Shown in pieces: positions 39,385 through 59,216 of a stretch of 59,216 bases of DNA (position 1 is its first letter; each line of letters opens with the position of its first letter). Source of the DNA: a virus (lineage: Duplodnaviria; Caudoviricetes); IMG/VR virus record IMGVR_UViG_3300024040_000027, positions 1-59,216 of that record. One strand, written 5' to 3'. The notes under the pieces are model-generated. The model saw nothing but the letters and a program-made list of their open reading frames with translations. It had not been told where the DNA came from and searched no databases. Both the position numbers and the translations under genes were made by a program.

Positions 39385-41033
39385 ACCTACTTGGAGCATT
39401 GGGCGGCGTTGGCAAGGGCGTGATGGTCGGCGCGGAAGAGCTTCGCCGTCAGGACGAGGCCGATCGGCGCAAGGAATTGGCGCGGCAGCAGCAAGAGGCG
39501 TATGCCCAGCAAAAGGCATCGGATGAAGCCTACTCCGAGGCACGTAAAGCCATCGGCACACGCAAGCTGGATACGGCGGCGCCGAACTATGCGGCGACCA
39601 ATGACGCCGCTCTGGAATTGGCGCAGCAGGCTCCGTATGGCGCCAACGGCGTTGAATTCGACCCGAACAACGAAGCTCACGCCAGCTATGCCAAGTTTCT
39701 GACCGGTGCCAGCCAGGCGATTCCTCAGACCAAGGCAGTCTCGGCGGCCGATGCGGAGCGCAACTTTGCGGCCAGCCCGCAGGCCACGGCGAGGGATGCG
39801 CGCGCCGCCACCGATCGTGCGTATGCACTGGATGCCGCCAGCGCAGCCGAAATCGACCGCAAGACAAAGGCCGATATCACTGCTGTGCAAACTGGCACGA
39901 TGAAGCTGATACGGCTCAGAGAGATCGGCTTGCTTTCCGACGATGAGGCCATCAAGCAGCTGCAGGAATTGTCACGGGTGATCCCGAATGGCTACGAGCT
40001 GGTGGATGGCGTGGACGAGAACGGCACGCGGACGCTGACCTATGGAGGGAATGGCGTTACGCAATTCTCTGTTCCGCGCACCAAAAAATCTATCGACGAC
40101 ATGCTGCAGGGTGTTCTGGACAACAGCAGCGTCGAAATGATGTCAGCAGCACTCAAGCGCAAGCATGAGGCTGACGTTCTGGCGGAAACGACTCGGCACA
40201 ATCAGGCGGTTGAGGCCGTGCAGGCGAAAAATGCCGATACCAATGAAGCGTATCGGCGCGATATGGCTGGAGCCGCCGCGCTGAGGGCCGGTGGAGTCCG
40301 TGGCGCAGGCAATGCCAAGGAACTGGCGGCGGAGGTAAAGACCAATGCGCAGCTCTATTCGTACACGCCGCTGAATGGCGAAAAGCCGATTGAGCACATT
40401 GCGGCAAAGTCGCTGTACTCCAACATGATCAAAAACCCGAAGATCGGGCCGGAGCAGGCGTACAGCGTGATGGCGCAAATCAAGGACGAAGCGGAAAAGC
40501 AATCCGTCGACCCCAAGACCGGCGCAGTCGATCCGATCAAGTTCCTGCCTATATTCGACGGCATGGTGAAGCGGGCGGATGACGCCATGCGCAAAAGCCA
40601 GCAAACCGCGAAGCCATCTGCAGCTGCCAAGCCTCCATCCGCGACTTCGGCTCCCGCTACCTCCCAGGTTCCGGCAGCCGCCGAAAGGAAAGCTATTCCG
40701 GCACCTGGCGGCGTGCGCCCGCCCAGCGCTCAGCAGGTGGCCATGAATGCTCCACCTCCAAATATCGGCGGCGTATCGACTGCCGAGAGAGATAGGCGGA
40801 TTGCGTTGATGAACACGTTGAGCGGCACATCTACGAAGCGGCACCAGGAAGGCATTGCGAGGCGCGATGCGGATGTTGCTGCCAATTTCGATTCGATGCT
40901 TGCCAACATCAGGCGAGGCATGACGCGCGCCGAGGCGCTAAAAACGCTTGCGTGGTTCGAGGATAACAATGGCTCGCTATCCAATCAGCAGCGCAAGCAA
41001 TTGAGGGATGCGCGACGCGCAGCTGGCTTGTAG
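39381..41033 (+). CDS. Internal virion/ejection protein
   Basis: GALGGVGKG N-terminus, ETTRHN motif, Ala/Gln-rich. Confidence 0.7.
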   Translation: MNLLGALGGVGKGVMVGAEELRRQDEADRRKELARQQQEAYAQQKASDEAYSEARKAIGTRKLDTAAPNYAATNDAALELAQQAPYGANGVEFDPNNEAHASYAKFLTGASQAIPQTKAVSAADAERNFAASPQATARDARAATDRAYALDAASAAEIDRKTKADITAVQTGTMKLIRLREIGLLSDDEAIKQLQELSRVIPNGYELVDGVDENGTRTLTYGGNGVTQFSVPRTKKSIDDMLQGVLDNSSVEMMSAALKRKHEADVLAETTRHNQAVEAVQAKNADTNEAYRRDMAGAAALRAGGVRGAGNAKELAAEVKTNAQLYSYTPLNGEKPIEHIAAKSLYSNMIKNPKIGPEQAYSVMAQIKDEAEKQSVDPKTGAVDPIKFLPIFDGMVKRADDAMRKSQQTAKPSAAAKPPSATSAPATSQVPAAAERKAIPAPGGVRPPSAQQVAMNAPPPNIGGVSTAERDRRIALMNTLSGTSTKRHQEGIARRDADVAANFDSMLANIRRGMTRAEALKTLAWFEDNNGSLSNQQRKQLRDARRAAGL

Positions 41034-41079
41034 CCGGAATCTGCCGACCGACAAAAATCACAAAAAACAAGGATCCTGA

Positions 41080-44000: not shown

Positions 44001-47000
44001 TCACATCGATACTTTCATCGGCCCGAATCACGAGAGCGACAAGGTATTCGTGGTCGATCAGGTGCATCCGGACAGCGGCAAGTTCGACGAGCATAAGATA
44101 GTTCTTGGCGCAAATAATTTAAGCGAAGCCAAGGAAATTTATGCCGCGAATTACGCTGTAAATTGGCGCGGCGGAAAAAGTATTAGCGAATTAAGTATCG
44201 ATGACTTCAAGAAATGGCTTAAAAGCGGCAACACGAAAAAAGCATTTTCAAGCGTCGATAACTCCGTTTTTAACAAAGGCTTTTCTAATACTTGGGGCGC
44301 TGACACCAAGGGATCGACCAATGCTCAGCATGGACTCTCCAGCCCTGTAAAGGATGACGGCTTTATCAAAGTCCCACTTGGTAGTGCCGTGTCTGAGATC
44401 GGTCGTGGGAATTCCTCTGGCGGCGAATCCGTTTCTGATGGCGGCGTAAGTAACTCCAAATTTGGCGGCGATTCTGTCAAAACTCCAGCCGGAGTTTCTG
44501 AGCAAAATGGCCTCGTCGAGGCTCCACTTCAGTCCAGAAAGATGGATGGCGACATGCTCCCGCTGGGTCATGATCGCAAGGTTTTCGATGGCGTTGTTAA
44601 GCCCATTCCCGTCGATGTGGTGAACAACCTCGGACCTGGTAAGCGGCCTTCCGATGTGAGCCTCCATGACAACCCTGTGCTCAAACCTTTGCCTTCTGAC
44701 GCCATTGACGGAAACACTGATAAGCCGGTAGGAAGTCCCGTGGGCGGGGAAGGTCCTGACGTGACCTCCAGTAGAGGGTCTAGCCATAGTAGCCCCATCG
44801 AATTAAAACCCAATGATACCACTGATGCATCTATTTCAGGTGGTTCATTACGCGATGAAAAAGATGCGACCCAAATCCCACCCGGACTGGCCAAGGCTCG
44901 TGCATTGCGCGACAGGAAAAAGGCGGAACAGTTCGTTGCCGCTCCAGATGGATCGCTTCAGTTCGGCGAGATAACCCAGGACGTGGCTCAAAAAGCCAAG
45001 CGCCAGGCCGGAGAGATTCGCCTACAGCAGGGCAATGCCGAGTTTGGCCTGATCCATATCGAGCAGCGCCACGGCGATCAAATCAGGGCCGCTGGGTTTG
45101 AAAGCGTTCCGGAATTCTTGGCGCATGCGCTGAACCACATTGACAGCATTTGGCAGCCGAACAAAACGTCACAGTTAGTGGCGATTCAAGTCGAGAATGG
45201 GCGGTCTGCCGTCTTTGTGCAGTTGAAACCATCTGAGGATGGAGATTTCTACACAATCAATACGGCATTTCCTGCCGGCAAGGACTACGCGGAGAAAAGG
45301 AAGGGGTGGAAAGAGCTTTGGAGCAGGGTTCCCGTTCCCGCTGAGGCGTCCGGCGCGCCATCCCATTTCGCTGAACCTGCCCAAGATGCCGGAAAGCAGG
45401 CCACGATGGAATCAGGCCAAAGCAAGGGAGATGATACGCTCTCGGCAGGGGAAGGCAAATTTTCTCAAGGTTTGGCTGCGGGCCAGAGCGATTTGCTTGC
45501 GTCGTCGCCAGAGCAGAAAAGCAGCGTGGACGTGCCTGCCGCCGTTCCTCCAGGTTTGGCAAAAGCCCGCGCATTGCGCGATCAGAAGCGTGCCGAGCAG
45601 TTCGTGCCCGCCCCGGACGGATCGCTGAATTTCGGCGAAATTACGCCTGAAATAGCTAAGCAAGCGAAGCGTCAAGCCGGGAAAATCAGGCTGCAGCAAG
45701 GCGTCCAAAATCCGGATGGTACTGGATACGGGCGGGTACACATTGAGGCAAACCACGGGAAAGAAATTCTAGCGGCCGGATTTTCTGGAGTGGAGGATTT
45801 TGTCGCCAGCGTTGCCAGGAATTTTAATCAGGTGTGGCAGGCAACCAAAACACGACAACTTTTAGTTGCTGTGCGAGGCTCACGACAAGATGTCATGTTT
45901 GTTCAGTTGGAGCCGATGGAAGGCGGCGACTACTATCGCGTGAATTCAGCCTTCCCGGCACAAGCGGCGTATTTCGGGAGGCAAGAGAGAAAGGGAATCA
46001 AGAAACTCTGGGATGGGAGCGAACCCGCATCCGTTGTCACTGGACAACAACCCGCATACGCTGCTGAAACACCTGATAGCACGTCCAGTCAGGGCAGCCC
46101 CACCGCTCGCGGCCAGAGTGGCCACAGTGTAGCAGAGGCTGCCAAGGTAGAGAAGCCGCTTTCCGCATCCATCGGGCCCAATGGCGCACCTGAAAAAACA
46201 GGAACTCTTAATCCCAGAGAACAAAGCGGCGAATCAAGTGTAGCACCGGAGGATGAGAAAGGTGCCGAAAATGCCGAATTGGAAAATGCACTGGCGCACC
46301 TTGGCGACGTGCTGGGCGATGTATTTGGCGCCAAACTGAACGCCACCGGCCAGCAGCACACGGCAGGCGCATTGCTGCCGGCACTGTCGAGGGTGATTGA
46401 GCTTCTGGTGAAGAAGGGCGCCCGCTCTTTCCGTGACGCGCTTACCGAGTCGGTCAAAGCGATGCGGGGGAATGCCGCGGTTGCGCCGCATCTGGACGCG
46501 ATCAGCGCGCGCCAGTGGAAGGCCGCCTACAACGCGATTGCCGATTTCCATGATGGCACCGATAGCGAGGAAACCGTAGCGGCCATCAGCGCGGATGACG
46601 TGCGCGATATGGTCGCTTCGGCAGCAGGCCAGTCGCAAGAAAAGAACGGTACGCAGGAGGGAGAAAAGACCGACGAGCCGGAGCCGAAAACTGAGGTGGC
46701 AGAGGTTGGCGTTCGTGACCAGGACGTAGGCACTGTCGAAGATATTGGCCGAAGGAGTTATGCCAGCGGCTCGCCTCGCGTGGCGCCCGGCGGGCTTTCC
46801 GGGAGTAATCAGAAGAAATGGTACTCCGGATACGACAGCGCCAAGCAGGAAGCAGCGGGGAAGGCCAGCGAAAATCCGGAGAACAGCGCCGCGCCTGAAC
46901 ATGTCGCCGCCAGAGCAGACAGCCGCGATCAGGCTGAGCGCGAGATTACGCGCCAGCTCAATGAGCAGTGGAGCGCGCAGACCGGCAGCGGATTCGCCAT

Positions 47001-48201
47001 CGGGAAGCATTACCCAGCGACCATCCGCTTGAATGGCAACGAGCGCAATCTCGGGCTGTTCAAGAAGAAAGACAGCGGCGTTCTGTATGCCGAGGCGCTG
47101 GACGAAACCATGTACGGCCCGGTGTTCACGCAGTACAAAGTGACGGCAGACGGCAAGCTGGAAGAAGTTGGTACGCGCCGCCTGTTTGGACTTGACAAGG
47201 AGCCTGCCAAGCAAGCGGTTTCTGAATTCAACGCGCTGTTTGAGCAGCCGGCACCGGCTACCAATGAGGCCCAGCCCGAGCACGCCGAGGCGCCCGCAGA
47301 GCAGGCCACCCCAGAACTCACCAGGCAACAACTGAATCGGCTGTCCGTCAAGGATATGACGGACGCACAATTGCTGCGCGCTCTCGCCGAATTGCCGAAG
47401 CGCACCAAGCCGATCCAGAAGGAAATCGGGCGCCGTGGGCTAAATTCGGAGGAAAGCGCGCCAGCTCCAGCACCATCCGAAAGCAAGCCGGCCACGGCCA
47501 ATCAAGAACCCGTCAAGAACGTCGAGCCAGAACTGGCACCGGCTGCGGCCGAGGCGGCGCCTGCGAACCATGCTGCGGTGAAAGTGCCGCAGAGCGTCGA
47601 TGAGGCATTGACGGCAGACATGACGAAGCAACAGGCGCGCGTGAAACGTTTGCGCACCGCCGCAACTGCGGACGGCATGACGCTGGATGAAAAGACGGCC
47701 GCCCAGCTTAAGGTGACGGCCGCCGAAGCCACGCTGCGCTCGATGCGCATCAAGCGATTCGACGCCGAGGATGCCGTCGAGAAGGCTGTGGCAGACAAGG
47801 ATGCGCGGGCTTTTGCTGAGTTCGCTGACCTATTCCCGTCCGCCGCGCAGGCGCTGCAAGTGCTGGTTCCTGCCACCGAGTCGCCAGCGGTGGAGTCGGT
47901 GAGCCGGCTCACCCAGGCCCGCAACGACCTGATTGAAATGCGTACCCAGGCCGAGGAACAGGGGCGGGTTGCCGATGATCGCCTGTTGTCCAGGATTCGC
48001 CGACAAGAAGCACTTATCAAGGAACTGGAAACAGAGCAGTCGGAGCCATCGGCTGGCGCGCAGGAGGAAAGCGCGTTGCGCCAGCTGTCCGACATCATGG
48101 TAACGGTTGGCGGGCAAGAGCAGCCGGCGTCGGTTGCGCTTGCTGAAGCCGACGAGAAAATTACCTCTCTGAAGGATCTGCTTTCGTGTTTGCAAGCCTG
48201 A
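41080..48201 (+). CDS. Giant polyvalent virion protein: SLT transglycosylase, inorganic-pyrophosphatase-like domain, two BECR-like nuclease domains
   Basis: QQES...GARGGMQILPATF; PTDAQKEAGNYK...YGYIRGTVGADKDHID...FDEHK; two G..HI...H domains. Confidence 0.85.
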   Translation: MPALDQLNTLLSAPDPTPGSELDRGGVLEQALKLEGVDGQLADVARSVYQQESDSGRNAKTSNAGARGGMQILPATFNEVADKGWNIDDPLQNARSGIRYLKQRYEQAGGDPVLAAAGYYGGPAGLEKARRGIATADPRNPSAPNTLQYGQQVAARLGGASAPQDEEGNTAYVDGILNAALSYKAPEPEKPAVGVMRTIGDTGIKVAQGVVDLGASAVGLGSLATGGKIGEGMRALGYDPKRTNEILGEYLSDSQKASDAKVAEADGFVDAIVAGVENPRSILGGIAQSLPGMLMGMGVSAALASKVAAKAALATVEGRAAAQAALAAGKSASQAAEAAVATTAGRTAATAAIESGGTKFLAAGAATEGAQSAGQIADDAQASGRKYGDYALPALAAGAGTAAIGFGAGKLMGDAATEIATGAKSAGVKGGMAARAGKEFLSEGVLEEMPQSAQEQFFTNIAQGEDDLGKGVGNAAGTGLLVGGVQGAGMGALQRRHTPTVVPDTGVLSRAANAGQQAVADKLNAQPEVDPGAPLPFEKVPITPPAPAGLSLEQPAERDPNSIDFTPETAAPSAVGLENLQRYGSSGFVSNDLDALRQYVLRHKEGGHDFSIIPHVNGGYTVAPTDRLTPFVLDAVRHLQPDAAAQDAQTGTPARSAEQSALAEQEIRRSMSAPTGIGELGQLEPERQEQVPQKTESNFAKVDEAIAAGYKLHGKVLVSPNGKPYRLNQEELAYFKKAEQAAATNAAARAAAESVPAAPAVSAPMDAEPEFTTTKDLYGKTVTVRTADLSGNRNSLQLYSKAGKQIPGRIARENLDPTGEKLAANNAANANNPFLNVITTKDGRAFKSKIVAGREMNRRGLSATHEVVPASEVSPNASGYVVRRMSAKTLGEQIDSAAHEAATSPQNDIPEPTDAQKEAGNYKVGRIKLHGLDISIENPAGSVRSGVDRDGTPWENEMQHHYGYIRGTVGADKDHIDTFIGPNHESDKVFVVDQVHPDSGKFDEHKIVLGANNLSEAKEIYAANYAVNWRGGKSISELSIDDFKKWLKSGNTKKAFSSVDNSVFNKGFSNTWGADTKGSTNAQHGLSSPVKDDGFIKVPLGSAVSEIGRGNSSGGESVSDGGVSNSKFGGDSVKTPAGVSEQNGLVEAPLQSRKMDGDMLPLGHDRKVFDGVVKPIPVDVVNNLGPGKRPSDVSLHDNPVLKPLPSDAIDGNTDKPVGSPVGGEGPDVTSSRGSSHSSPIELKPNDTTDASISGGSLRDEKDATQIPPGLAKARALRDRKKAEQFVAAPDGSLQFGEITQDVAQKAKRQAGEIRLQQGNAEFGLIHIEQRHGDQIRAAGFESVPEFLAHALNHIDSIWQPNKTSQLVAIQVENGRSAVFVQLKPSEDGDFYTINTAFPAGKDYAEKRKGWKELWSRVPVPAEASGAPSHFAEPAQDAGKQATMESGQSKGDDTLSAGEGKFSQGLAAGQSDLLASSPEQKSSVDVPAAVPPGLAKARALRDQKRAEQFVPAPDGSLNFGEITPEIAKQAKRQAGKIRLQQGVQNPDGTGYGRVHIEANHGKEILAAGFSGVEDFVASVARNFNQVWQATKTRQLLVAVRGSRQDVMFVQLEPMEGGDYYRVNSAFPAQAAYFGRQERKGIKKLWDGSEPASVVTGQQPAYAAETPDSTSSQGSPTARGQSGHSVAEAAKVEKPLSASIGPNGAPEKTGTLNPREQSGESSVAPEDEKGAENAELENALAHLGDVLGDVFGAKLNATGQQHTAGALLPALSRVIELLVKKGARSFRDALTESVKAMRGNAAVAPHLDAISARQWKAAYNAIADFHDGTDSEETVAAISADDVRDMVASAAGQSQEKNGTQEGEKTDEPEPKTEVAEVGVRDQDVGTVEDIGRRSYASGSPRVAPGGLSGSNQKKWYSGYDSAKQEAAGKASENPENSAAPEHVAARADSRDQAEREITRQLNEQWSAQTGSGFAIGKHYPATIRLNGNERNLGLFKKKDSGVLYAEALDETMYGPVFTQYKVTADGKLEEVGTRRLFGLDKEPAKQAVSEFNALFEQPAPATNEAQPEHAEAPAEQATPELTRQQLNRLSVKDMTDAQLLRALAELPKRTKPIQKEIGRRGLNSEESAPAPAPSESKPATANQEPVKNVEPELAPAAAEAAPANHAAVKVPQSVDEALTADMTKQQARVKRLRTAATADGMTLDEKTAAQLKVTAAEATLRSMRIKRFDAEDAVEKAVADKDARAFAEFADLFPSAAQALQVLVPATESPAVESVSRLTQARNDLIEMRTQAEEQGRVADDRLLSRIRRQEALIKELETEQSEPSAGAQEESALRQLSDIMVTVGGQEQPASVALAEADEKITSLKDLLSCLQA
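44248..44787 (-). CDS. HNH endonuclease with two HTH-like repeats, nested antisense within the giant gene
   Basis: EHRVVME..IGRPL..SEVVHHIDGNGLNNAIENL...EH..IH. Confidence 0.85.
   Translation of the reverse strand: MARPSTGGHVRTFPAHGTSYRLISVSVNGVRRQRFEHRVVMEAHIGRPLTRSEVVHHIDGNGLNNAIENLAIMTQREHVAIHLSGLKWSLDEAILLRNSGWSFDRIAAKFGVTYAAIRNGFAARGIPTTDLRHGTTKWDFDKAVILYRAGESMLSIGRSLGVSAPSIRKAFVKNGVIDA
45315..45423. ncRNA. Structured element 1, 3' of first BECR-like domain
   Basis: GCTTTGG/CCAAAGC closing stem; inner stems GGTTCC/GGAATC, GGCG/CGCC, CCTGC/GCAGG. Confidence 0.55.
46005..46119. ncRNA. Structured element 2, 3' of second BECR-like domain
   Basis: ACTCTGG/CCAGAGT, GAGCG/CGCTC, GTTGTC/GACAAC, GCTGC/GCAGC, CCTGA/TCAGG. 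Confidence 0.6.
46155..46230. ncRNA. 76-nt cloverleaf element within CDS
   Basis: GCCGCTTT/AAAGCGGC closing three hairpins CCAT/ATGG, CCTG/CAGG, CTCT/AGAG. Confidence 0.5.
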
Positions 48202-48240
48202 TAATCGACGCCACCTAATTTCTACGACACAAGGCCGACA

Positions 48241-51200
48241 ATGGGTTCTCCTTCGCTCTGCTTATCGCAAAATCCGCTCGGGAAACACCGCAAGGAGTTT
48301 GATGAGAAGGTTGCCGAGGTCAAGGCTCTGGATGAGGTCGGATCACAGCAGGCGCATGTGGTGGCAGCGCAGATCATGCTGAGGGAGGCCGAGGAAAGCC
48401 GCGCGGCCATCGTGGCGCAGATCAATGCCAATGCCAAGCGCGACGGCTATGCGGTTGACTGGGCAACTTTTGCACAATCGTTGAATCACGCTACACTTGA
48501 CACGGGATTACAACATGGTGGTGACGATGGACAGAGCAACGCTGGCGATGATGGCGCGCAAGCATTGGGCCGAGTGGCTGCCGCAAAAGACCGAGGATCT
48601 GAAGGAATCCGGCAGTCTGAACGAGGAAATTCAGGCGGCGGCCGCAGCGGCGCAGAAGTGGATTCAGGAGCTGATGGCGAGCGGCTACCAGGAGCACGAG
48701 GCCGCAGAAATGGCGCTGGCCAGGTACATTCTTCTCAAGCCGGAAGAGTCAGAGGACGACTGGGAGAGCCGCGAACTGGCGGAGATGGAAGCGGAGTACC
48801 AGGAAATGATGCGGGAGCCGGAGGATCCGGACGATCCGGAGTCGTAAGTAGCGCGCCGAATATCCCGGCGCAGAATTTCCGCATCACCGACGACGTGCGG
48901 CTGGGCCAGGGTGGCGAAGTTGAGAAATTCAACGACAACCTGCGGGCGATTCGCACGCTCAAGCAGATCGAGGCGGAAGGCCGGCGCGCAACGCCGGAAG
49001 AGCAGGCCATTTTGGCGCGCTATGTCGGTTGGGGTGGCCTTGCCAATGCCTTCCCTGACCCGCTGAGCGGGACATTCAAGGAGGCATGGTCCAAGCGCGG
49101 CCCGGAACTGGCCGCGCTGCTGACGCCAAAAGAACACCAGATGGCCGGCCGCTCGACGCTGGACTCGCACTACACCTCGCAGACGGTGGTCAACAGCATG
49201 TGGGCGGCCGCCGCGCGGCTTGGTTTCAAGGGCGGCATGGCCCTGGAGTCGTCGATGGGCGTCGGCAACTTCCTGGGTTTGATCCCGGAATGGCTTTCTG
49301 CCAACACCAAATTTGTCGGCGTCGAATACGACAGCCTGACATCGCGTATCGCAGCCTTGCTGTACCCGCAGGCCACCATCCTTAATTCCGGCTTCCAAAG
49401 CGTGCCGCTTTCGGATGGGTCATTCGATCTGTCGATTGGCAATCCGCCGTTCGGCAACCAGTCGCTGCGCTTCCAGTTCAAGCCCGAGCTGAACGCGCAC
49501 TCGATCCACAATCAATTCTTCCTGGCGTCGATCGATGCCGTGAAGCCTGGCGGCCTGCAGATTCAAGTCGTGTCGCGCTACCTGATGGATGCGGTGGATA
49601 CGAGCGCACGCGCGGCGCTGGCAAAAAAAGCCAAATTGATTGGCGCAATCCGCTTGCCAGATACCGCATTCAAGGAAAATGCGCGCACCGAAGTGGTGAC
49701 CGACATTCTTTTCTTGCAGCGATTGACGGCCCAAGAGCAGGCCGAAATGGAGGCTGCATTTGCCGCCGCACGCCAGAAAAAGGAGAAGAACTACCAGGCC
49801 GAACAAGAGCGGCAAGCCCTGGCTGACCGAGTGCCGAGTTGGGTGAACTCGACCAAGGTGCCGGATCCTCTGGGCGGCGAGCCGATGCAGATCAGCCGGT
49901 ATTTTGCCGATCATCCAGAGATGATCATGGGGACGCTGGAGCGCTCCGGGTCAATGGCGCACGGCAACGATATCACCGTGCGACTGGATAAGGGCGAGAG
50001 CTTGGCCGGCATGCTCGACGCTGCCATTTCTCGCCTGCCAGAAGGCGTGATGCGGCAGGAGCAAAGCGCGATCGATGCATCAATCGCGCGCCATCAGGCG
50101 ATGTCGGATGCCCTGCATATCGCCATTTCCGGGCAAGAGCAGGGCGCAATCACGTTTGATGCCGATGGCAACCTGCAGCAGGTTTTTGAGCGAGAAACGC
50201 CCAACGGCGACTTTGAATTGGCCAAGCGCACGCTTTCCGCGACATCGCCGTGGTCTCCTGAGTTGTACCAGAACGACAAGGGCCAATGGTACAAGATCGA
50301 GGCGGTGCTCGACGAGGCCGGCAAGCCGGTCAAGCAGCAGGTAAAAAACTCGATTACCGGGGAGGTCAGGAGCACCAACAAGAATGTCTACGGCCGCGTG
50401 GTATTCGAGAAGGAATCCGACATTCCTTCCGGTTTGTTACTTGGAGCGGAGAAATTCAAGCGCCTGAAGGCGCTGGTCGGGCTTCGCGATTTGTTGTCCG
50501 ACCAGTTGAGCATGGAGGCAGAGGATGCCGGCGCAGCGCAGATCGAGGGCAACAGAAAGGCTTTGAAGGAAGCCTATCAGAAGTTCGTCAAGGACAGCGG
50601 TTACATCAACGAGCCGGCCAATGCTGCGCTGGTTGCCAATATGCCTGATGGCGCGCTGGTGCTGGCACTCGAACTGCAATACCGCCCGGCGATCAGCGCG
50701 GCCAAGGCAGCCAGGATCGGGGAAAAGGTACGCGGCGCATCGGCGACGCCAGCCCCGATCTTGTCCGAGCGCGTGATCATGAAATATGAGCCGCCCACCA
50801 GCGCCGCATCGCATGCTGACGCGCTGGCGATCGCAATGGCCGAATCTGGCCGGGTGGACATGGATCGTATCGCCAGCCTGCTTGGCCGCCCGACCGAGGA
50901 TATCAGCGCGGAAATGCTCGGCGCGGACAAGCCAATGGTATTCAAAGATCCGGAAAGCGGCGAGATCGTTGACCGCAATGAATACCTGTCCGGGCAAGTC
51001 AAGCGCAAGCTGGAAGCGGCGCGCAACGCCGGCCTGTCGAAGAACGTCGAGGCGCTGACTGCAGTTCAGCCGGAGCCGTGGGGTGCAGAAAGTGTTACTG
51101 CGCTGCTTGGTTCGACTTGGGTACCGCCCGCAGTGTACGAGGCTTTCATCGCCCATATCTCCGGCGGTAACCCGCGAGTCAGTTTTTCCAGGCTGACCAA

Positions 51201-54200
51201 TAGCTTCACGGTAACGAATGCTTCTCGCATCAGGGCCAATGAGGAAGAGTGGGGCACTGATGATGTGGCATCGGCCAGCATCATCAATGACCTTCTCAAC
51301 AGCCGCGCCGTCAAAGTCACCCGCACGGATAGCGATGGCAAAACCTACGTCGACCAGGAAGCTACGGCGCTGGCGCTATTGAAGGCAAAGGCCATCAGTA
51401 ACGAATTCAGCGACTGGGTATTTGCTGATTCCGACCGGCGTAACCTGCTTGTCGATACCTTCAACGAAAAATTCAATACCCGCGTCAATCGCCAGCATGA
51501 CGGTTCGCACCTGCTCCTGCCGGGGAAGGTGCCGGACATGATTATCAAAATGCGCCGGCATCAAAAAAATGCGATATGGCGTGGTATTTCAGAGCGATTC
51601 ATGCTGCTGGATCACATTGTTGGTGCCGGCAAGAGCTTTACGGCAATCGCGCGCGCGATGGAGCGTCGGCGCATGGGCCTGTCAAAAAAGCCGGCGATCA
51701 TCGTGCCGAACCACATGGTTCAGCAATTCACGTCCGATGCCTACCGGCTGTATCCGGGCGCAAAGGTACTGGCCGCAACCAAGCGCGATTTTGAAAAAAA
51801 GAACCGCCGCAAGTTCTTTGCAAAGATCGCCACCGGCGACTTCGACATCGTGATCATCCCGCATTCGTCGTTCGGCTTCATCGGCATTTCTCCTGAAACC
51901 GAAGCCCGATACCTGGAGCAGGAATTGGAAGCGGCTGAGGCGGCGATCAAGGATGCGCAGGCCGCAGCGGATAAAGAGGGCGGAGGCGGATACCGCAAGC
52001 CGTTTGGCGTCAAGGAGGCTGAGCGACTGCGCGACAAGATCACCGCGCGCATGGACAAGATCAGGGGCGCCGATAGCAAAGACCGCCTGCTGACCTTCGA
52101 GCAAATGGGGATCGACGATTTGACCGTCGATGAGGCCCACGAATTCAAAAATTTGTTCTACAGCTCGCGCCTGACGAACGTCATGGGCATGGGGAACAAG
52201 GAAGGCTCGCAAAAGGCATTTGACCTGTACAACAAGGTTCGGGTGCTGCGTGACTCTCCGAAGGGCACCGTTACGTTCATGACCGGTACGCCGATCTCGA
52301 ACAGCGCGGTGGAAATGTACACCATGATGCGCTTCCTGGCCGCCAAGGAATTGGACGAGTTGGGGCTGAGCCACTTTGACGCATGGCGCGCGCAATTCGT
52401 GTCCACTGACGCCGACTGGGAGCAGAACGAAACGGGGCGCCTGAAGGAGGTCAATCGGCTTGGCCGCACATGGTCGAATATGCGTTCGCTGATGGACCTG
52501 TACTACTCCTTTACCGATTCCGTCAGCAACGACGACATCAAGTCCGCCTATGCCGAGGACAACAACGGCGCGCAGTTCCCGATTCCGAAGGTGAAGGATG
52601 GCGATCGGCAGTCGGTCGTGGTGCAGCCGACCGAGGCCCAGTTGTCTCTGCTGAACCATATCATTGAAGAATTTGACGCTCTGCCGAGCATCAATGACCC
52701 GCGCGAGCGAAATATCCGACGCCTGAAGCTGAGGGACAGGGCTCGAAAGGTATCGCTCGACGTGCGCGCGGCCGACCCGACCAACCCCAGTGACGAGCAG
52801 GGAGGCAAGCTCGACAAGTTGGCGGCGGAAGTTCACCGGATTTACCAGAAATGGGACAAGGATCTCGGTACTCAGCTGATTTTCCTTGACCGCTCTGTTC
52901 CAAAGGCGAAGGGCGACGACAAGACACTGAAGGAATATGACGCTCTGCTGGCCGAGCAAGGCAAGGCGTTGGCGGACGGCGACGAGGACGGTCTACGCCG
53001 TGTCGGCGAAAAGCTGGAGAAATACGACTCCAACGAAATGGCCGAAATGCGCAGCGCGCAGGCGGGCGGATGGAATGCGTACCAGCAAATCAAGGACAAC
53101 TTGATGGCGCTGGGCATCCCGTCCAGCGAAATCCGATTTATTCAGGAAGCCAACAACGACGCGCAGAAGCAGGCCATGTTCGATGCCGTCAATGACGGCA
53201 GCGTGCGCGTCCTGATCGGTTCGACACCGCGTATGGGTGCCGGGACCAATGTGCAGCAGCGTCTGGTGGCGCTGCATCACGGCGACGTGACGTGGAAGCC
53301 ATCCGACATCGAGCAGCGCGAAGGCCGGATTATCCGGCAGGGCAACATGCTGCTGGATAAGTACGGGATCGACAAGTTCGAAGTCGAGATCCTGGCTTAC
53401 GCGACCGAGCACACCATTGATGCAAAAATGTGGAGCCTGAATTCCTCCAAATTGAAAACCATCAACGGCATCCGCAAGTACGATGGCGCATTCTCGATGG
53501 AATTTGAGGATGCGGAATCGGTCAGCATGGCCGAATTGGCGGCGCTGGCATCGGGTGATCCGCTGCTGCTGGAGCGGGTCAAGCTGATGTCGGAAATCGA
53601 CAATCTGAACCTGCTGAAGCGTCAGCATGCCCGCAAAGAGTGGGGCATCATCAGCCAGATCGAATCTGCAGAGAAGGCGATCGCCCGCATCCCGGCCGCG
53701 ATCTCCGCTATGGAGACGGATATCGAGCGGCTGCGCGCGGCGCACGCGGCGGTAGAGGCCAAGGTTGCGGCTCGCGAAATTGACATCGAGGGCAAAACCT
53801 ACAGCACGCCAGAATCCGCCAAACTGGCGGCGCATGCAGCGCAGCAGGCACAGCAGAACGGCGATGACAATGCCAAATTCTCGATCAGCGTCAATGGCCG
53901 CCGGAAATCGACGCAAAACACCTATCTGGACGAGATCAGCCACGTTTTCGGAGACACCAAGCCATTTGAAATGGTGGTGAACGACGAGCCGTACATTGGT
54001 CGCACGGATGCTGCGCGCCTGCTGGCTGAAAAATCGAGTGAGATTGCCGGGGCTCTTGGAAAGGGCGGCGAGGAATCCATCAAGATGGGCACCTACATGG
54101 GGTTCCCGCTTGAACTGACGGTTGGCCGTAGCAGTCACTTCGATGCGTTTTATGCGACGCTCTCCCTGTTGCGCGAGGATGGCAGTACCTTGGCATCCGC

Positions 54201-57200
54201 CGACACCAGCGGTATCGAAACCAGCCGCTTTTCCACGCAAGCACTGCGCCCGCTGCTGACGCGGCTCGACGGCGATATCGACGTTGACAACAAGCTCCGT
54301 CAAATCAGCGACAGCCGTCGCCGTCTGGCCGCTGCACAGGCCGAACTGCCGGAGTTGCTTGCCAAGAAAGGTGCGCCATTCCCCAAGGCGGAGGAATTGG
54401 ACGCCAAGAATGCGCGCTTGGAAGAAGTCATTCGCGCGCTGTCTGGCGACAAGGCGGACAGCGCGGCGGCGGCATCAGGCGCGGTCTTTTCGCGCGGGGC
54501 CAATATGGGCGGATCGCCCATCGGGCAGGACGTGAATCGAACCGCCGTGACTGAGGCGGAAGTGCGTCGCGTAGTAGATCGCATTCTCGGGACGATGCCG
54601 AACGCGAATCTGCCCAATTTCCATATTTTTGATACTTTCGACGCGCTTCCCGCTGCGGTCATAGACCAGGCCATCAAGGAGGGAGCTAAAGGGACCGTCG
54701 ACGCCGTGCGTAACGAAAACGGCATTCTCCTGGTTCGCGACCGGTTCACTTCGACGGAACATCTTGAAAAAGCCATTTTTCATGAACTGGCGCATGAAGG
54801 ACTCCGCAAATTATTTGGCAGCGACTTCGTTGCCAAGATGAATCAACTGTTTTTGGCGGTTGGCGGGGAAAGCGGCCTGCGTCGCATCGCAGCCAAGCAT
54901 AACATTTCTCTGGATGCGTATTTCAAGGGCTTCGAGAGCAACAAGGAGGCATATACCCCGGACGAGCGCCGGGCGACATTGACCGAGGAACTGCTGGCAT
55001 ACATTGCCGAAGAGCGTCCGACCCTGAAAAGCAAGGTGCTGGAAATCGTTGGCATGGTCCGAAACTGGCTGCGCGAGCATGGATTTTCAGCGCTGCCGTC
55101 TGGCACCAATGCAGACATTCTGGACATTTTGCGCCGTAGCCGGAAGGCGCTCGGCGCACCGCAGTCGGTTGGTGGCCGCCTATCTGGCAATGCGTTCCTG
55201 GAGAACAAGCTGGGCGAACTGGCGCGGGCTGCGCGCGCCTCTGGTAACGAGAACCAGACAGTGGTGCTTGGCAAGCTGTCAGCTGCCGAGGTAGCGCTAC
55301 TCAGTCGCGAAGGCGTGGCTGTGGATGATGGCTATTCCCACGCGGCCGACATGTTTGCCGTGCGCCATGCGCTCAACCGGCATGGTGATGAAAGGGTGGA
55401 GAAAAGCCGAGGGCAACTCGCCATTACTGACAATGACGTTGCGCAAATCGCCGAAGCGATTGCTGCGCCAACTGCCTATGTGCTTGGCGGAAAGACGCCA
55501 CGCAAACAGGACGTGGTAGGGACCATCAAGCGATTGGCCGATGGGACGTTGCTGTATTTGGAGGAAGTGCGCTCCGGGCGCAAGACGCTGTCGATGACCA
55601 GCATGAGAAAGTACCCCGGTACGACGGATTTCGACACCATTGCGAATAGTGTCCTGCCGTCCAACGCCCGAAGCGATACCGGGGATGTGCGTATTGTGTA
55701 TCCCGATGGGCGAGAAAGTCAACCTGGCAAAGATGGCCGCAATTTCGATCCGGCCAATCATGATATCCGCTTCAGGCGTAGCGATCCACGCGGCCAACTG
55801 GGTAGCGCTCTGGCGACGGCAGCCAACAGCATCAAGGATGTTCGCTTGCCGGCCGACTATCTGGTTGGCGACTTCCTGAGCAGCAACGGGAAGCTATCGT
55901 GGTGGCACAAGACCATTGGTACCCAGTACAACCTGGCCAAGCGCAGCCCGCTTTACGCGAAGGTATACGACCGGGTGCAGAGCTTCATTGGCGACGTTTC
56001 GCAGTATGCGGTGGAGGCGGCAGACCAAGCGCCGAACATCCTGCCGAAACTGGAAAACCTCGCTGATATCTGGCAAAAGCAGCCGTTGACGCCCGAGGAT
56101 ACCAAGGCGGTGAGTGCGCCGATCTTCGAAGGCACGCTGATCTGGAGCCGTGACGCGCACGGCCGACCGATCAAGCTGTCGGAGTTGGAAGATGCTGCCA
56201 GCCGCATGACGACTGAGCAAAAGAAGGACGTTTTGCTGCAGAAGGGCGTGATCGACGACGATCAAGTCCGACGCTGGCAGGCCAATCCACTCGATTTTTA
56301 CGATGCGGCCATCAACAATCGCTACGAGCAGTCGGAGCTTCGGGGCGGTATCGTCTGGACCCCGAGCGAACTGCAAACAATGTTTGGCCTGAACGCCAAG
56401 CAAATTGGGCTGTATCAGGAATTCCGCGCCGCGACCGACCGCAGCCTGACCAGTCTGGCGATTTCCGACATGCTGAAGTTCGGCGGCAAGGATGCCGAGG
56501 CGGTTACGGAGGAGGCAATGGGCGCCAATGACGTGGGGCGTGCAGGCGAACTGCTGCGCGACCACTTCATGCGGTTGGCTGAGGATGACCCCGCGCGCGA
56601 GAAATCGCTGATGGATACGGCCACGGCCATGATTGACAAGGCCGACCGGGCGCAGGATCTGATGGATCGTGGCTATGCGCCGCTGTCGCGCTTCGGCCAC
56701 TACACGGTGTACGTGCAAAACGGCGGTGAGCAGGTGTATTTCGGCATGTTTGAGAACAAAGCCGAGGCCGCCAAGATGGCGCGCAAGATGCGCGAAAACT
56801 ACCCCGATGCGCAAATTACGCACGGCACCGCGTCCGAGGAAAGCTACAAGCTGTTTGCCGGGGTATCTCCGGAAACCGTGGAGCTGTTCGGCAGCATGCT
56901 GGGCTTGGACAGTCAGGGTGATGGCGCCGCCAGCGAGGCCTACCAAGCCTACCTGAAGCTGGCAAAGAACAGTCGCAGCGCCATGAAGCGGCTGATCGAG
57001 CGCAAGGGTGTTGCCGGCTTCTCTGAAGATGCCGGGCGCGTCCTGGCCGGGTTCGTCTACTCGAATGCTCGCCTGACTTCGAGCAACCTTCACATGGGCG
57101 AATTGAACGATGCCATCAATGACATCCCCAAGGCGCAAGGCGAACTGAAGGACGCGGCGGTGCAGTTGGCCGAGCACGTCAAAAATCCGCAGGGCGGCGG

Positions 57201-58701
57201 CGGGATGATGGGCGGATTGATGTTCGCGCAGTTCCTGGGCGGTTCGGTGGCATCTGCGCTCGTCAACATGACGCAGCCGATCGCGATGACCTTCCCGTAT
57301 TTGAGCCAATACGGTGGCATCGCACAGGCGGCGGCGCAGTTGACTGCCGCCGCGCGCGACGCCGGGAGGGCTTCCACCGGAGACGCCAAGCTGGATGCGG
57401 CGCTCAAGTTGGCCGCCGAAGAGGGCATTGTGTCGCCGCAGGAAGTGCATCAATTGAAGGCGCAGGCGGCCGGGCGCGGCGTTCTGCAGGCCGGAGACGG
57501 CACAAGGCTGGGCGATGCCGCCGCCAAGATGAACAACGCGTTGGCCAAACTGTCGCTCGGCTGGGGCAAGCTGTTCGCACTGGCTGAATTGACCAATCGC
57601 CGTATCACCTTTATCGCCGCCTACCGGGTGGCTGAGGCGCAGGGGATGGCCGATCCGGCGGCATTCGCAAAAGATGCTATTGAGGCAACCCAGGGCACTT
57701 ACAATGCCGGTAATAAACCTCGCTGGGCGCGCAGTACGCTGGGCGGCTTGGCGATGACCTTCAAGCAGTATTCGATCGCCTATATCGAACTGCTTGGGCG
57801 CATGGCATTTGCCGGAGAGCCGGGATCGCCAGAGCGCGCGGCCGGCCGGCGCGGCGCGCTGCTGATGCTGGCCGTGCTGTTTTTGATGTCGGGCGCTGAT
57901 GGCCTGCCTTTCGAGCAGGACATGGAGGATGTGATCGACGGCATCCTGCAGCGGATGGGCTACAACTTCAGCACCAAGCGCAAGAAAGAAGAGTTCTTGA
58001 CGGAAGTGCTGGGCGAGGGCGGCGCGGACTTCGCGCTGAAGGGGATTTCCGGCTTGCCTGGCGTGCCGATCGATGTGTCTGGCCGATTTGGCTTGGGCAA
58101 TCTCATTCCCGCAACCGGCCTCTTCACAAAAAAATCGTCATACACCCAGGACATTGGCGAATTGGCCGGACCGGCCGGCGACATTGCAAAGCGTGCCTTT
58201 ACGGCGGCCGGGAAAGCGGTTGGCGGGCAATTCGATGACGCCTTGATCGACCTGTCTCCGGTGGCGCTCCGCAACCTGGAAAAGGGCGCGCGCATGCTCC
58301 AGCATGGCGCCTACCGGGATACGCGCGGCTATGTGGTCAATGAGACAACGCCGGTCGAGGCGGTGCTGAAGATGGCGGGCTTCCAGCCGAACAGCACGGC
58401 GCATATCCAGGGCGCGAAAATGCAGGCGATCGACATGATCGAGCAAAACCGGATGCGCTCAAAGGAAATCCAGGAGCACTGGGCTCAGGGGCTGGCGAAC
58501 AACGATCCTGACAAGGTGCAGGAGGCGCGTGAGATGCGCGACGACTGGAACGAGAAGAATCCGGACACGCCGATCAAGGTCAACATGCCGGCCGTGATCC
58601 GGCGCGTGAAAGAAATGCGGCTGAGCGCGGCTGAGCGCACGAACAAAACCGCGCCCAAGGCACTGAAGAGCGCCGTGCAGCGCGAACTGGCGGGAGGCTA
58701 G
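48241..58701 (+). CDS. Giant DarB-like polyvalent protein: N6-MTase + SNF2 helicase + zincin + BECR (PBECR3-like) + PLxRFG domain
   Basis: YVGWGG, GNPPF, VGAGKS, VDEAHEFKN, TGTPISN, EQREGRIIRQG, HELAH, RHALNRHG, YAPLSRFG. Confidence 0.9.
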   Translation: MGSPSLCLSQNPLGKHRKEFDEKVAEVKALDEVGSQQAHVVAAQIMLREAEESRAAIVAQINANAKRDGYAVDWATFAQSLNHATLDTGLQHGGDDGQSNAGDDGAQALGRVAAAKDRGSEGIRQSERGNSGGGRSGAEVDSGADGERLPGARGRRNGAGQVHSSQAGRVRGRLGEPRTGGDGSGVPGNDAGAGGSGRSGVVSSAPNIPAQNFRITDDVRLGQGGEVEKFNDNLRAIRTLKQIEAEGRRATPEEQAILARYVGWGGLANAFPDPLSGTFKEAWSKRGPELAALLTPKEHQMAGRSTLDSHYTSQTVVNSMWAAAARLGFKGGMALESSMGVGNFLGLIPEWLSANTKFVGVEYDSLTSRIAALLYPQATILNSGFQSVPLSDGSFDLSIGNPPFGNQSLRFQFKPELNAHSIHNQFFLASIDAVKPGGLQIQVVSRYLMDAVDTSARAALAKKAKLIGAIRLPDTAFKENARTEVVTDILFLQRLTAQEQAEMEAAFAAARQKKEKNYQAEQERQALADRVPSWVNSTKVPDPLGGEPMQISRYFADHPEMIMGTLERSGSMAHGNDITVRLDKGESLAGMLDAAISRLPEGVMRQEQSAIDASIARHQAMSDALHIAISGQEQGAITFDADGNLQQVFERETPNGDFELAKRTLSATSPWSPELYQNDKGQWYKIEAVLDEAGKPVKQQVKNSITGEVRSTNKNVYGRVVFEKESDIPSGLLLGAEKFKRLKALVGLRDLLSDQLSMEAEDAGAAQIEGNRKALKEAYQKFVKDSGYINEPANAALVANMPDGALVLALELQYRPAISAAKAARIGEKVRGASATPAPILSERVIMKYEPPTSAASHADALAIAMAESGRVDMDRIASLLGRPTEDISAEMLGADKPMVFKDPESGEIVDRNEYLSGQVKRKLEAARNAGLSKNVEALTAVQPEPWGAESVTALLGSTWVPPAVYEAFIAHISGGNPRVSFSRLTNSFTVTNASRIRANEEEWGTDDVASASIINDLLNSRAVKVTRTDSDGKTYVDQEATALALLKAKAISNEFSDWVFADSDRRNLLVDTFNEKFNTRVNRQHDGSHLLLPGKVPDMIIKMRRHQKNAIWRGISERFMLLDHIVGAGKSFTAIARAMERRRMGLSKKPAIIVPNHMVQQFTSDAYRLYPGAKVLAATKRDFEKKNRRKFFAKIATGDFDIVIIPHSSFGFIGISPETEARYLEQELEAAEAAIKDAQAAADKEGGGGYRKPFGVKEAERLRDKITARMDKIRGADSKDRLLTFEQMGIDDLTVDEAHEFKNLFYSSRLTNVMGMGNKEGSQKAFDLYNKVRVLRDSPKGTVTFMTGTPISNSAVEMYTMMRFLAAKELDELGLSHFDAWRAQFVSTDADWEQNETGRLKEVNRLGRTWSNMRSLMDLYYSFTDSVSNDDIKSAYAEDNNGAQFPIPKVKDGDRQSVVVQPTEAQLSLLNHIIEEFDALPSINDPRERNIRRLKLRDRARKVSLDVRAADPTNPSDEQGGKLDKLAAEVHRIYQKWDKDLGTQLIFLDRSVPKAKGDDKTLKEYDALLAEQGKALADGDEDGLRRVGEKLEKYDSNEMAEMRSAQAGGWNAYQQIKDNLMALGIPSSEIRFIQEANNDAQKQAMFDAVNDGSVRVLIGSTPRMGAGTNVQQRLVALHHGDVTWKPSDIEQREGRIIRQGNMLLDKYGIDKFEVEILAYATEHTIDAKMWSLNSSKLKTINGIRKYDGAFSMEFEDAESVSMAELAALASGDPLLLERVKLMSEIDNLNLLKRQHARKEWGIISQIESAEKAIARIPAAISAMETDIERLRAAHAAVEAKVAAREIDIEGKTYSTPESAKLAAHAAQQAQQNGDDNAKFSISVNGRRKSTQNTYLDEISHVFGDTKPFEMVVNDEPYIGRTDAARLLAEKSSEIAGALGKGGEESIKMGTYMGFPLELTVGRSSHFDAFYATLSLLREDGSTLASADTSGIETSRFSTQALRPLLTRLDGDIDVDNKLRQISDSRRRLAAAQAELPELLAKKGAPFPKAEELDAKNARLEEVIRALSGDKADSAAAASGAVFSRGANMGGSPIGQDVNRTAVTEAEVRRVVDRILGTMPNANLPNFHIFDTFDALPAAVIDQAIKEGAKGTVDAVRNENGILLVRDRFTSTEHLEKAIFHELAHEGLRKLFGSDFVAKMNQLFLAVGGESGLRRIAAKHNISLDAYFKGFESNKEAYTPDERRATLTEELLAYIAEERPTLKSKVLEIVGMVRNWLREHGFSALPSGTNADILDILRRSRKALGAPQSVGGRLSGNAFLENKLGELARAARASGNENQTVVLGKLSAAEVALLSREGVAVDDGYSHAADMFAVRHALNRHGDERVEKSRGQLAITDNDVAQIAEAIAAPTAYVLGGKTPRKQDVVGTIKRLADGTLLYLEEVRSGRKTLSMTSMRKYPGTTDFDTIANSVLPSNARSDTGDVRIVYPDGRESQPGKDGRNFDPANHDIRFRRSDPRGQLGSALATAANSIKDVRLPADYLVGDFLSSNGKLSWWHKTIGTQYNLAKRSPLYAKVYDRVQSFIGDVSQYAVEAADQAPNILPKLENLADIWQKQPLTPEDTKAVSAPIFEGTLIWSRDAHGRPIKLSELEDAASRMTTEQKKDVLLQKGVIDDDQVRRWQANPLDFYDAAINNRYEQSELRGGIVWTPSELQTMFGLNAKQIGLYQEFRAATDRSLTSLAISDMLKFGGKDAEAVTEEAMGANDVGRAGELLRDHFMRLAEDDPAREKSLMDTATAMIDKADRAQDLMDRGYAPLSRFGHYTVYVQNGGEQVYFGMFENKAEAAKMARKMRENYPDAQITHGTASEESYKLFAGVSPETVELFGSMLGLDSQGDGAASEAYQAYLKLAKNSRSAMKRLIERKGVAGFSEDAGRVLAGFVYSNARLTSSNLHMGELNDAINDIPKAQGELKDAAVQLAEHVKNPQGGGGMMGGLMFAQFLGGSVASALVNMTQPIAMTFPYLSQYGGIAQAAAQLTAAARDAGRASTGDAKLDAALKLAAEEGIVSPQEVHQLKAQAAGRGVLQAGDGTRLGDAAAKMNNALAKLSLGWGKLFALAELTNRRITFIAAYRVAEAQGMADPAAFAKDAIEATQGTYNAGNKPRWARSTLGGLAMTFKQYSIAYIELLGRMAFAGEPGSPERAAGRRGALLMLAVLFLMSGADGLPFEQDMEDVIDGILQRMGYNFSTKRKKEEFLTEVLGEGGADFALKGISGLPGVPIDVSGRFGLGNLIPATGLFTKKSSYTQDIGELAGPAGDIAKRAFTAAGKAVGGQFDDALIDLSPVALRNLEKGARMLQHGAYRDTRGYVVNETTPVEAVLKMAGFQPNSTAHIQGAKMQAIDMIEQNRMRSKEIQEHWAQGLANNDPDKVQEAREMRDDWNEKNPDTPIKVNMPAVIRRVKEMRLSAAERTNKTAPKALKSAVQRELAGG
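48527..48847 (+). CDS. Nested +1-frame acidic helical protein (weakly TnpV-like)
   Basis: MDRATLAMMARKHWAEWLPQKTEDLKESGSL...; GGTGGTG SD-like; host frame here is a Gly/Arg-rich low-information linker. Confidence 0.7.
   Translation: MDRATLAMMARKHWAEWLPQKTEDLKESGSLNEEIQAAAAAAQKWIQELMASGYQEHEAAEMALARYILLKPEESEDDWESRELAEMEAEYQEMMREPEDPDDPES
55614..55684. ncRNA. Structured element 3' of PBECR3-like domain
   Basis: CCCCGGTA/TACCGGGG, GACGG/CCGTC, GACAC/GTGTC, CGC-CCGAA-GCG. Confidence 0.6.
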
Positions 58702-58824
58702 ATGGGCAAAATCAACTGGGGCGGCGCGGCGGTGTTGCTGGGCCTGATCGCGCTGGCGGTGGCGGTTCCGCTGCTGGCGCTGCCGATCGGCGTGGGGCTG
58801 GGTTATCTATACTGGAAAAGCTGA
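58702..58824 (+). CDS. Small hydrophobic protein (40 aa)
   Basis: Manual translation MGKINWGGAAVLLGLIALAVAVPLLALPIGVGLGYLYWKS; GGAGG RBS; coupled at both ends. Confidence 0.6.
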   Translation: MGKINWGGAAVLLGLIALAVAVPLLALPIGVGLGYLYWKS

Positions 58825-59216
58825 TGGCCGAAGAACGAAAACCGCTCCTTGCCGCTGGAGGCATCCGGCCCGCAAAGTCGGAAAAGCTGCCGAGCGACGA
58901 TGACATGGCCAAGATGACGTGGAATGATCTGTACCAGCTACGGGTCAAGGCGCGCGGTAATCCGGAGGCCCAGGCGGCGATTGCGCCGTATGAGCATCGG
59001 GCGTATGCGCGTGAAGAGGTGGCAAAAAATCCGCTGGCCGCGCCGGCTTGGGTGGTGATGCCTCCCGCCTATCAGGCGGCCAAAGCGGCCGGCCTGACGG
59101 ATAGCGATGACATGAGTTCGCCGGCCAGCATGAAGCAAGTGGCGCAGGGGCTTATCGGCGTCGCGGAAGGCGTTTCTGAAGGATCGCGGCGGCTATTGCG
59201 GCGCGCAGCTGAGTAA
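58824..59216 (+). CDS. Hypothetical protein
   Basis: TGATG coupling; IAPYEHRAYARE motif. Confidence 0.7.
   Translation: MAEERKPLLAAGGIRPAKSEKLPSDDDMAKMTWNDLYQLRVKARGNPEAQAAIAPYEHRAYAREEVAKNPLAAPAWVVMPPAYQAAKAAGLTDSDDMSSPASMKQVAQGLIGVAEGVSEGSRRLLRRAAE

Follow-up and report, generated by a model that had tools for sequence, protein, structure and literature searches.

The DNA analysed here (the window) is the complete virus record IMGVR_UViG_3300024040_000027, a genome of 59,216 bp and 59% GC. On its plus strand an open reading frame (ORF) at 48241..58701 encodes a polyvalent protein of the virion or ejection type, 3486 aa long, which encloses a PBECR3 domain (a predicted RNase, 55312..55626), a 71-nt element folding into a three-way junction (55614..55684) and a promoter-like site on the opposite strand (55722..55693). 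We give a probability of roughly 55% to the reading that 55603-55722 is a cis-antisense small RNA gene nested in the coding sequence of the PBECR3 RNase module. Comparison of related sequences establishes the conservation of the fold, the promoter, their spacing and their linkage to the domain; from this we infer antisense transcription, the ends of the RNA, its target and its effect.

The element opens with P1, an 8-bp stem formed by 55614-55621 (CCCCGGTA) and 55677-55684 (TACCGGGG). Within it, a single C (J1/2, 55622) leads to the 5-bp helix P2a (55623-27/55657-61), which is separated by an internal loop (55628-32 and 55654-56) from the P2b hairpin (55633-53, with a 5-bp stem at 55633-37/55649-53). 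The junction letters CAA (J2/3, 55662-64), the P3 hairpin CGC-CCGAA-GCG (55665-75) and a single A (J3/1, 55676) complete the structure. These stems, the hairpin and the 71-nt extent had been described in an earlier note on this DNA, and the minimum free energy (MFE) fold of the 71-mer agrees with them (-27.3 kcal/mol, z-score -3.49, none of 200 shuffles equally stable). The same note had the element trailing the domain, which proved incorrect. It is embedded in frame inside ORF 48241..58701, encoding the amino acids YPGTTDFDTIANSVLPSNARSDTG between the strands TLSMTSMRKY and RIV, and protein homology continues across it, so that it is translated rather than lying 3' of the gene. A covariance model of the element (see below) finds a single copy in the window. 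Searches of Rfam 15 returned no match over the element, either at E ≤ 1 in 40000-59216 of the window or at E ≤ 5 in 7 homologue loci, both strands being searched in each case, and ARAGORN predicted 0 tRNA genes in the window. The element is undescribed, with no family in Rfam 15 and no description found in the literature.

On the minus strand, the sequence TTGACT-N18-CACAAT reported in the earlier note is present. The -35 box TTGACT (55717..55722) is followed after an 18-nt spacer by the -10 box CACAAT (55693..55698), which overlaps the codons ATT GTG (Ile-Val) and ends 8 nt from the 3' end of P1. The predicted start of the antisense RNA is an A at 55686, which lies 7 nt past the -10 box, with the mirrored P1 beginning 2 nt further on. 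Once past P1, the minus strand carries a pyrimidine-rich run, UACUUUCUCAU (55603..55613), formed by the rare Arg codon AGA together with AAG, which might serve as a weak terminator tail.

The first sign of constraint at the nucleotide level came from the closest relative (L001), a contig of an Acidovorax metagenome-assembled genome, whose match to the window is confined to 55209-55706 (499 nt, 80% identity). Within this match, 55609..55688 form a run of 80 identical nt, the next longest identical run being 20 nt. An RNA model search over 151 genomes of the order to which this relative belongs, with stricter filters and few candidates scored, matched its genome only. Further loci (L003-L018) were obtained by protein-guided searches, and the same topology folds independently in the window and 7 further homologue loci, although two of these 8 sequences share the element of the window or of L003. 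The common arrangement is P1, C, P2a, internal loop, P2b hairpin, (Y)CAA, P3 with a 5-nt loop, A and P1'. Across relatives, P1 changes from CCCCGGUA/UACCGGGG to UCCCGGCG/CGCCGGGA and UCCCGCCA/UGGCGGGA, and P2a from GACGG/CCGUC to GAAGG/CCUUC, GAGAG/CUCUC and GCUUC/GAAGC. Seeded with 4 sequences, a covariance model recovered 14 non-seed instances among the searched loci, including 8 of the 34 loci fetched by a 16-nt word; the gapped pattern GGATTTC..CTGCCKTCCWAC brought in 14 new loci, with real elements in 2 only. In 18 distinct sequences 97.6% of cells are paired, compared with 81.9% after shuffling and 39-55% when the alignment is slid, and both sides have changed in 11 of 16 pairs, with 48 double-change cells against 13.5 ± 3.0 expected (0/500 shuffles match).

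Since selection by RNA had to be removed, PBECR3 relatives were also picked by one protein motif alone, giving 31 loci (11 on contigs seen earlier). The element is found on the coding strand directly 3' of the domain in 26 of the 31 at E ≤ 0.05, and in 20 at E ≤ 1.3e-4. Two more contain weak matches only (L074, E 0.27; L089, E 0.83), and three of the 31 (L095, L096, L097) contain no match. In this protein-picked set 97.0% of cells are paired (79.8% when shuffled), compensation is seen in 12 of 16 pairs and there are 65 double-change cells where 18.5 ± 3.7 are expected; again, 0/500 shuffles match. The behaviour that the earlier note expected of PBECR3 homologues is therefore found in most of them, with the fold in 26/31 protein-picked loci and the promoter in 25/31 instances. 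The same note had allowed that GC content alone might explain the pairing. A single fold of this energy is indeed ordinary, as 12.4% of 29,573 71-nt windows of this 59% GC phage reach -27.3 kcal/mol or lower, but the compensation across relatives beats 500 of 500 shuffles.

Outside the set picked by motif, the element is absent from the more distant relatives found earlier (L007, L008, L012, L014-L018). In L015-L018 the ORF stops just past the domain, some 20-45 nt after TLYK, and a different hairpin, CCGCYTAAGCG...CYTARGCGG, spans the stop codon, with changes on both arms. In L085 (981-1153), about 35 extra codons stand between RKYPAT and the element, which restarts with PATRD; the arrangement may represent an intact copy behind a decayed first one.

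The loop of P3 is CCGAA or close to it in most instances, as the earlier note had suggested, with variants CCGAG, CCGCA, CCAGA, CCAAA and GCAAA. Its reading frame differs in L011. In L090 and L098 the stop codon of the ORF falls within or just 5' of the element, and in L038 the element starts 2 nt past the stop codon of a tail-fibre gene with a Peptidase_S74 domain. Codon usage gives a similar picture. Immediately 5' of P1, 18 of 25 Arg codons are AGA or AGG, whilst AGR makes up only 9.7% of Arg codons in the two giant ORFs of the window; in the same two ORFs GTA, which a TACAAT box requires, accounts for 11.5% of Val codons. Moreover, the -35 box TTGnCn occurs in varying frames and residue contexts (SQ, GQ, GK, GN, RQ, Q-ST). 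Judged by its sequence, the element is not a protein motif, and the constraint is on nucleotides, because the frames of the -35 box differ and rare codons are kept.

The promoter recurs as well. A minus-strand sigma-70-like site scoring at least 8/12 lies 3-17 nt from P1 in 25 of 31 distinct instances, and one scoring at least 9 in 17 of 31. Dinucleotide shuffles yield 1.37 sites per set at the lower threshold (maximum 6) and 0.32 at the higher (maximum 2), and 0 of 200 shuffle sets reach the observed recurrence. Control scans gave 0/31 on the plus strand upstream and 1/31 in reversed sequence. The -10 boxes are TACAAT (11/31), CACAAT, TATAAT, GACAAT and similar, and the -35 boxes TTGACY, TTGCCN, TTGATT and similar. 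The distance from the end of the -10 box to P1 is exactly 8 nt in 19 of the 25 promoter-bearing instances, a spacing that puts the predicted start at the A of a conserved CAT on the minus strand, 2 nt before the stem. A predicted promoter of its own on the strand opposite the coding sequence, as in cis-antisense RNA genes, is thus present here. In the TLAMTS clade (window 55576-55613) the minus strand past P1 can, by eye, form GCUGG-N6-CCAGC followed by GUCUU, which might be an alternative antisense 3' end; by eye, the hairpin is absent in the ELAAVS clade.

The domain called PBECR3-like in the earlier note is a real match to the Pfam profile PF18812 (aa 2358-2462; 55.9 bits against a gathering cut-off of 30, E 4.8e-15). 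As a unit it spans approximately 55228-55706 by homology and model, the homology itself covering 55209-55706. H38, H47, H52, R46, E112 and E113 are invariant in the 18-23 homologues compared, and the strand containing TS is also kept. An AlphaFold (AF2) model of the domain with 23 homologues as input has pLDDT 87.5 and pTM 0.82; in this model the codons of the element come after strand 120-129 (TLSMTSMRKY), as helix 135-142 and then a loop of low confidence (143-152), and strand 155-157 (RIV) comes next. Its best matches in the PDB are RelE-type RNase toxins, weakly so (BrnT, E 0.11, probability 0.94; 7vd7_A). In Burkholderia phage phiE131, PBECR3 is the C-terminal end of gp004, which sister records annotate as a portal protein. 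A protein search of plasmids gave no match. On the contig of L028, a second PBECR3 copy (11911-12282, minus strand, 41% identity) has the tail WRYPLTVHASSI and is unmatched by the RNA model.

Elsewhere in the 3486-aa ORF, methylase-like and SNF2/helicase-like parts are both under Pfam cut-offs, and the C-terminal PLxRFG-like part resembles structural proteins in 35 Pseudomonas phage records. Upstream in the window are genes for terminase, portal, major head protein, tail fibre and internal virion protein. The phage looks like a temperate podophage, because the window also encodes an Ant-like anti-repressor and O-like replication genes, and prophage expression of an antisense RNA is therefore plausible.

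Where instances were found by DNA alone, PBECR3 lies directly upstream in 7 of 10. Fold and promoter persist without PBECR3 in L021, whose 2127-aa ORF has an LPD3 domain, and in L063; L038 keeps the fold alone. A contig assembled from an RNA sequencing run matches the window over 55609-55711 only and has unlike flanks. A wastewater run (X22) contains two very short contigs, of 52 and 133 nt, over the element and its near flanks (window 55566-55720). Their recorded depth is near 8000, compared with 10-23 in neighbouring contigs of relatives; contig depths cannot be used to rank different regions of a gene. The simplest explanation would be a conserved promoter-to-tail block shared by many phages of the sample, at which the assembly graph collapses.

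How, then, might such a gene work? The sigma-70-type promoter (-35 at 55722-17, -10 at 55698-93) would start transcription at about 55686, and the first ~70 nt of the antisense RNA would mirror the three-way junction, with the pyrimidine-rich tail coming after them. One DNA stretch would then encode the end of the RNase domain, an RNA fold and a promoter, and the antisense unit would travel between phage genes with the PBECR3 domain. The most likely job of the RNA would be to restrain the RNase module, for instance in lysogens or ahead of packaging. Type I antitoxin RNAs and lambda OOP pair with their mRNAs, and the RNA could likewise bind the mRNA segment to which it is perfectly complementary and whose fold mirrors its own; alternatively, its conserved loops and junction could bind a protein. 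The antisense RNA is favoured over a sense one because the promoter, rather than the fold or the energies, tells the strands apart. Of the 'cognate RNA' that the earlier note proposed for each nuclease family, a conserved fold linked to the domain stands, whereas the fixed aim of the promoter suggests an antisense transcript and not a piece of the mRNA. Going further, nuclease modules of polyvalent proteins and portal fusions could be self-contained cassettes of a toxin and an RNA, in which a three-way-junction RNA from the opposite strand acts as antidote (by mRNA pairing or enzyme binding), both are shuffled together and orphan copies confer immunity. This extension is tentative and we consider it rather doubtful.

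Several attempts were made to assign the strand from the RNA itself. In raw kcal the minus strand is the more stable in 17 of 19 sequences; a call on this ground was rejected, as the advantage is an effect of composition and the corrected z-scores split 5 to 5. Wobble pairs also failed to separate the strands (15 versus 12). On the minus strand the invariant junction letters C and A would become a G.U pair, no more than a suggestive point. Translation of the antisense RNA into a small protein was considered and rejected. TTG, the complement of the junction CAA, opens frames of 35-85 aa in 15 of 23 instances, but their lengths vary, the start is lost where the junction reads CUA, and no conserved antisense ORF was found in the 23 instances examined. 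A kissing pair between the loop and the internal loop (CGAA with UUCG) was likewise rejected, being by eye broken in L063 (loop CCGCA) and only 3 bp long in several others.

A number of observations weigh against a cis-antisense RNA gene. The core helices contain 15 plus-strand G.U pairs, compared with 12 A.C cells, which the minus strand would turn into G.U, and composition-corrected z-scores favour plus in 5 of 10 sequences and minus in the other 5. G.U pairs in P2a of L022, L028 and L048 become C.A mismatches in the antisense RNA. The conserved letters of loop and junction are unexplained by cis-antisense pairing alone. Taken singly, the promoter is as ordinary as the fold, since 50000-59216 (9.2 kb) holds 2 promoter-like sites where 3.1 ± 1.9 are expected. 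Six of the 31 instances (L010, L013, L038, L082, L085, L098) have no good promoter. The terminator is weak, with a U-rich tail past P1 (a UACUUUCU-like run, at least 5 U in 8 nt) in only 12/31, and a simple terminator scan of the window found none. A recognisable PBECR3 is missing upstream in three to four instances (L021, L063, L038 and the RNA-run contig), and the RNA may be independent of the domain. The RNA-run matches are assembled contigs, showing neither strand nor transcript ends. Finally, the alignments were fitted to the covariance model and the instances amount to a handful of clades, whose kinship the shuffle controls ignore, so that independence is overstated.

The same observations can be read in other ways. 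If the sense strand were the functional one, the three-way junction in the mRNA would be bound or cut by the PBECR3 RNase or by a host factor, leading to self-limitation or to a truncated message. RNases that control their own mRNA through a structured site include RNase III, RNase E and T4 RegB, the fold is equally significant on plus and minus, the P2a of L022, L028 and L048 holds plus-strand G.U pairs and the linkage to the domain is tight (26/31). We nevertheless find this unlikely, as it leaves the opposite-strand promoter at its fixed 8-nt distance unexplained, the fold is translated in most instances and so would be unwound at each ribosome pass, and the domain is missing from some instances. 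An antisense RNA might alternatively serve in defence between phages, with the RNA of a prophage destroying the near-identical ejection-protein mRNA of superinfecting relatives. The BTP1 RNA STnc6030 is a precedent (PMC7067206), identity is extreme between phages whose flanks differ, contigs of other runs share just the region around the element, and promoter and fold persist without PBECR3 in L021 and L063. Exclusion should, however, drive divergence of the target, yet no part of the module is better conserved than this region, whose helices change by compensation that preserves the fold; we hold such a role to be quite improbable.

A feature of the DNA itself, namely a conserved linker or hairpin-forming site at the module boundary that promotes recombination and the shuffling of domains in polyvalent proteins, would fit the confinement of the L001 similarity to 55209-55706, the way similarity in L021, L063 and one run contig sets in at the 5' edge of P1, and the prevalence of Watson-Crick pairs (522 of 563 cells). 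We nevertheless hold it to be very unlikely, as the conserved unpaired letters and wobble pairs of a three-way junction are unexpected for a site in duplex DNA, a promoter with conserved spacing is unexplained, and breakpoints at the most conserved stretch are expected regardless. Chance pairing in GC-rich coding sequence next to a chance promoter-like match would agree with the ordinary single-sequence statistics, but it is refuted by the compensatory changes (0/500 shuffles) and by the recurrence of the promoter in relatives (0/200 shuffle sets), and can be practically dismissed.

The earlier note had also extended the pattern to two further BECR-like domains at 45-46 kb, so that all three would share it; this could not be established. 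The domains in question, 44947-45480 and 45544-46080, are repeated in a neighbouring 2373-aa ORF (41080-48201), are 45% identical and share the motif HIExRHG. A Pfam search gave no hit for either at E ≤ 1, and four windows of our own choosing at 45-46 kb, which may differ from those of the earlier note, have fold z-scores of +0.2 to +1.5. Promoter-like sites in this region are suggestive only. A minus-strand TTGCCT-N16-TATCAT lies at 45458..45431, within the HIExRHG domain region. Among 23 HIExRHG relatives (L099-L121), inspected as an uncontrolled series, three GC-rich ones have sites of at least 8/12 at similar offsets, and 12 AT-rich loci, all close kin, share a site ~58 nt past a conserved Leu. 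These are hints that the HIExRHG family may likewise carry an antisense promoter. The 2373-aa ORF is a second polyvalent virion protein, because it contains SLT lytic transglycosylase (aa 43-131) and InPase pyrophosphatase (aa 914-1048, E 3.3e-56) domains. Elsewhere in the window, a weak radC-RNA-like match at 53165-53299 on the plus strand (23.3 bits against a gathering score of 40, E 0.68) is probably due to chance.

Polyvalent proteins carry toxic enzymes that are injected with phage DNA, which raises the question of what spares the cells that produce the phage or are lysogenic for it. The main text of the founding PBECR paper names no immunity factor for these domains (PMC5512222), and the nested promoter and RNA offer a testable answer. 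If the tentative cassette of toxin and RNA were real, it would constitute RNA-based immunity for a toxin delivered by the virion, a kind of toxin for which that paper describes none. The element adds an RNA family absent from Rfam 15, and clearly exemplifies how protein, RNA fold and promoter can impose overlapping constraints on a single short piece of DNA. The case further suggests that antisense RNA genes can be found from sequence once relatives are compared, and that strongly conserved synonymous sites in phage structural genes may flag nested RNA genes.

Amongst known systems, type I toxin-antitoxin pairs in which an antisense RNA overlaps the toxin mRNA (symE/SymR, bsrG/SR4, txpA/RatA) come close. 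Like them, the locus described here combines a predicted toxic nuclease with an overlapping, structured candidate antisense RNA that has a predicted promoter, inherited as a unit. Unlike in them, the predicted toxin is no small free-standing gene but one domain within a 3486-aa virion protein or a portal fusion, which places the locus outside that class. Type III toxin-antitoxin systems (ToxIN) rely on a folded RNA that inhibits an endoRNase by binding it. Here too a predicted endoRNase has a structured RNA element with conserved loops beside it, and the idea of an inhibitor fits the conserved unpaired letters. However, the element is single-copy, without tandem repeats, and its RNA would be made from the opposite strand, rather than upstream on the same strand as in type III, so that it does not belong to this class either; moreover, unlike ToxN, the RNase is of the BECR type.

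The domain itself agrees with the PBECRs described by Iyer et al. 2017, who report fusions with portal, MuF and polyvalent proteins, in its portal and giant virion fusions and in its predicted injection with the DNA (PMC5512222). The terms 'antisense', 'small RNA', 'noncoding' and 'immunity protein' are absent from the main text of that paper, and the putative nested RNA gene sets the locus apart from the family description given there (PMC5512222).

Cis-encoded antisense RNAs occur in late or regulatory genes of temperate phages, and STnc6030 is the nearest precedent among them. This RNA of prophage BTP1 lies opposite the 3' end of a DNA-injection gene and keeps out superinfecting BTP1 (PMC7067206, where lambda OOP and P22 sas are also named). 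Like these three, the candidate RNA has a promoter of its own, here a predicted one, on the opposite strand within a protein-coding gene, overlaps the 3' coding part of its presumed target and is non-coding; its presumed target is also, as with STnc6030, a podophage DNA-injection gene. At ~786 nt STnc6030 is far longer than the ~80-110 nt predicted for the RNA here, which has a conserved three-way junction and is known from sequence alone. Furthermore, unlike STnc6030, OOP and sas, the element is bound to one domain and appears to move with it between portal and giant polyvalent genes.

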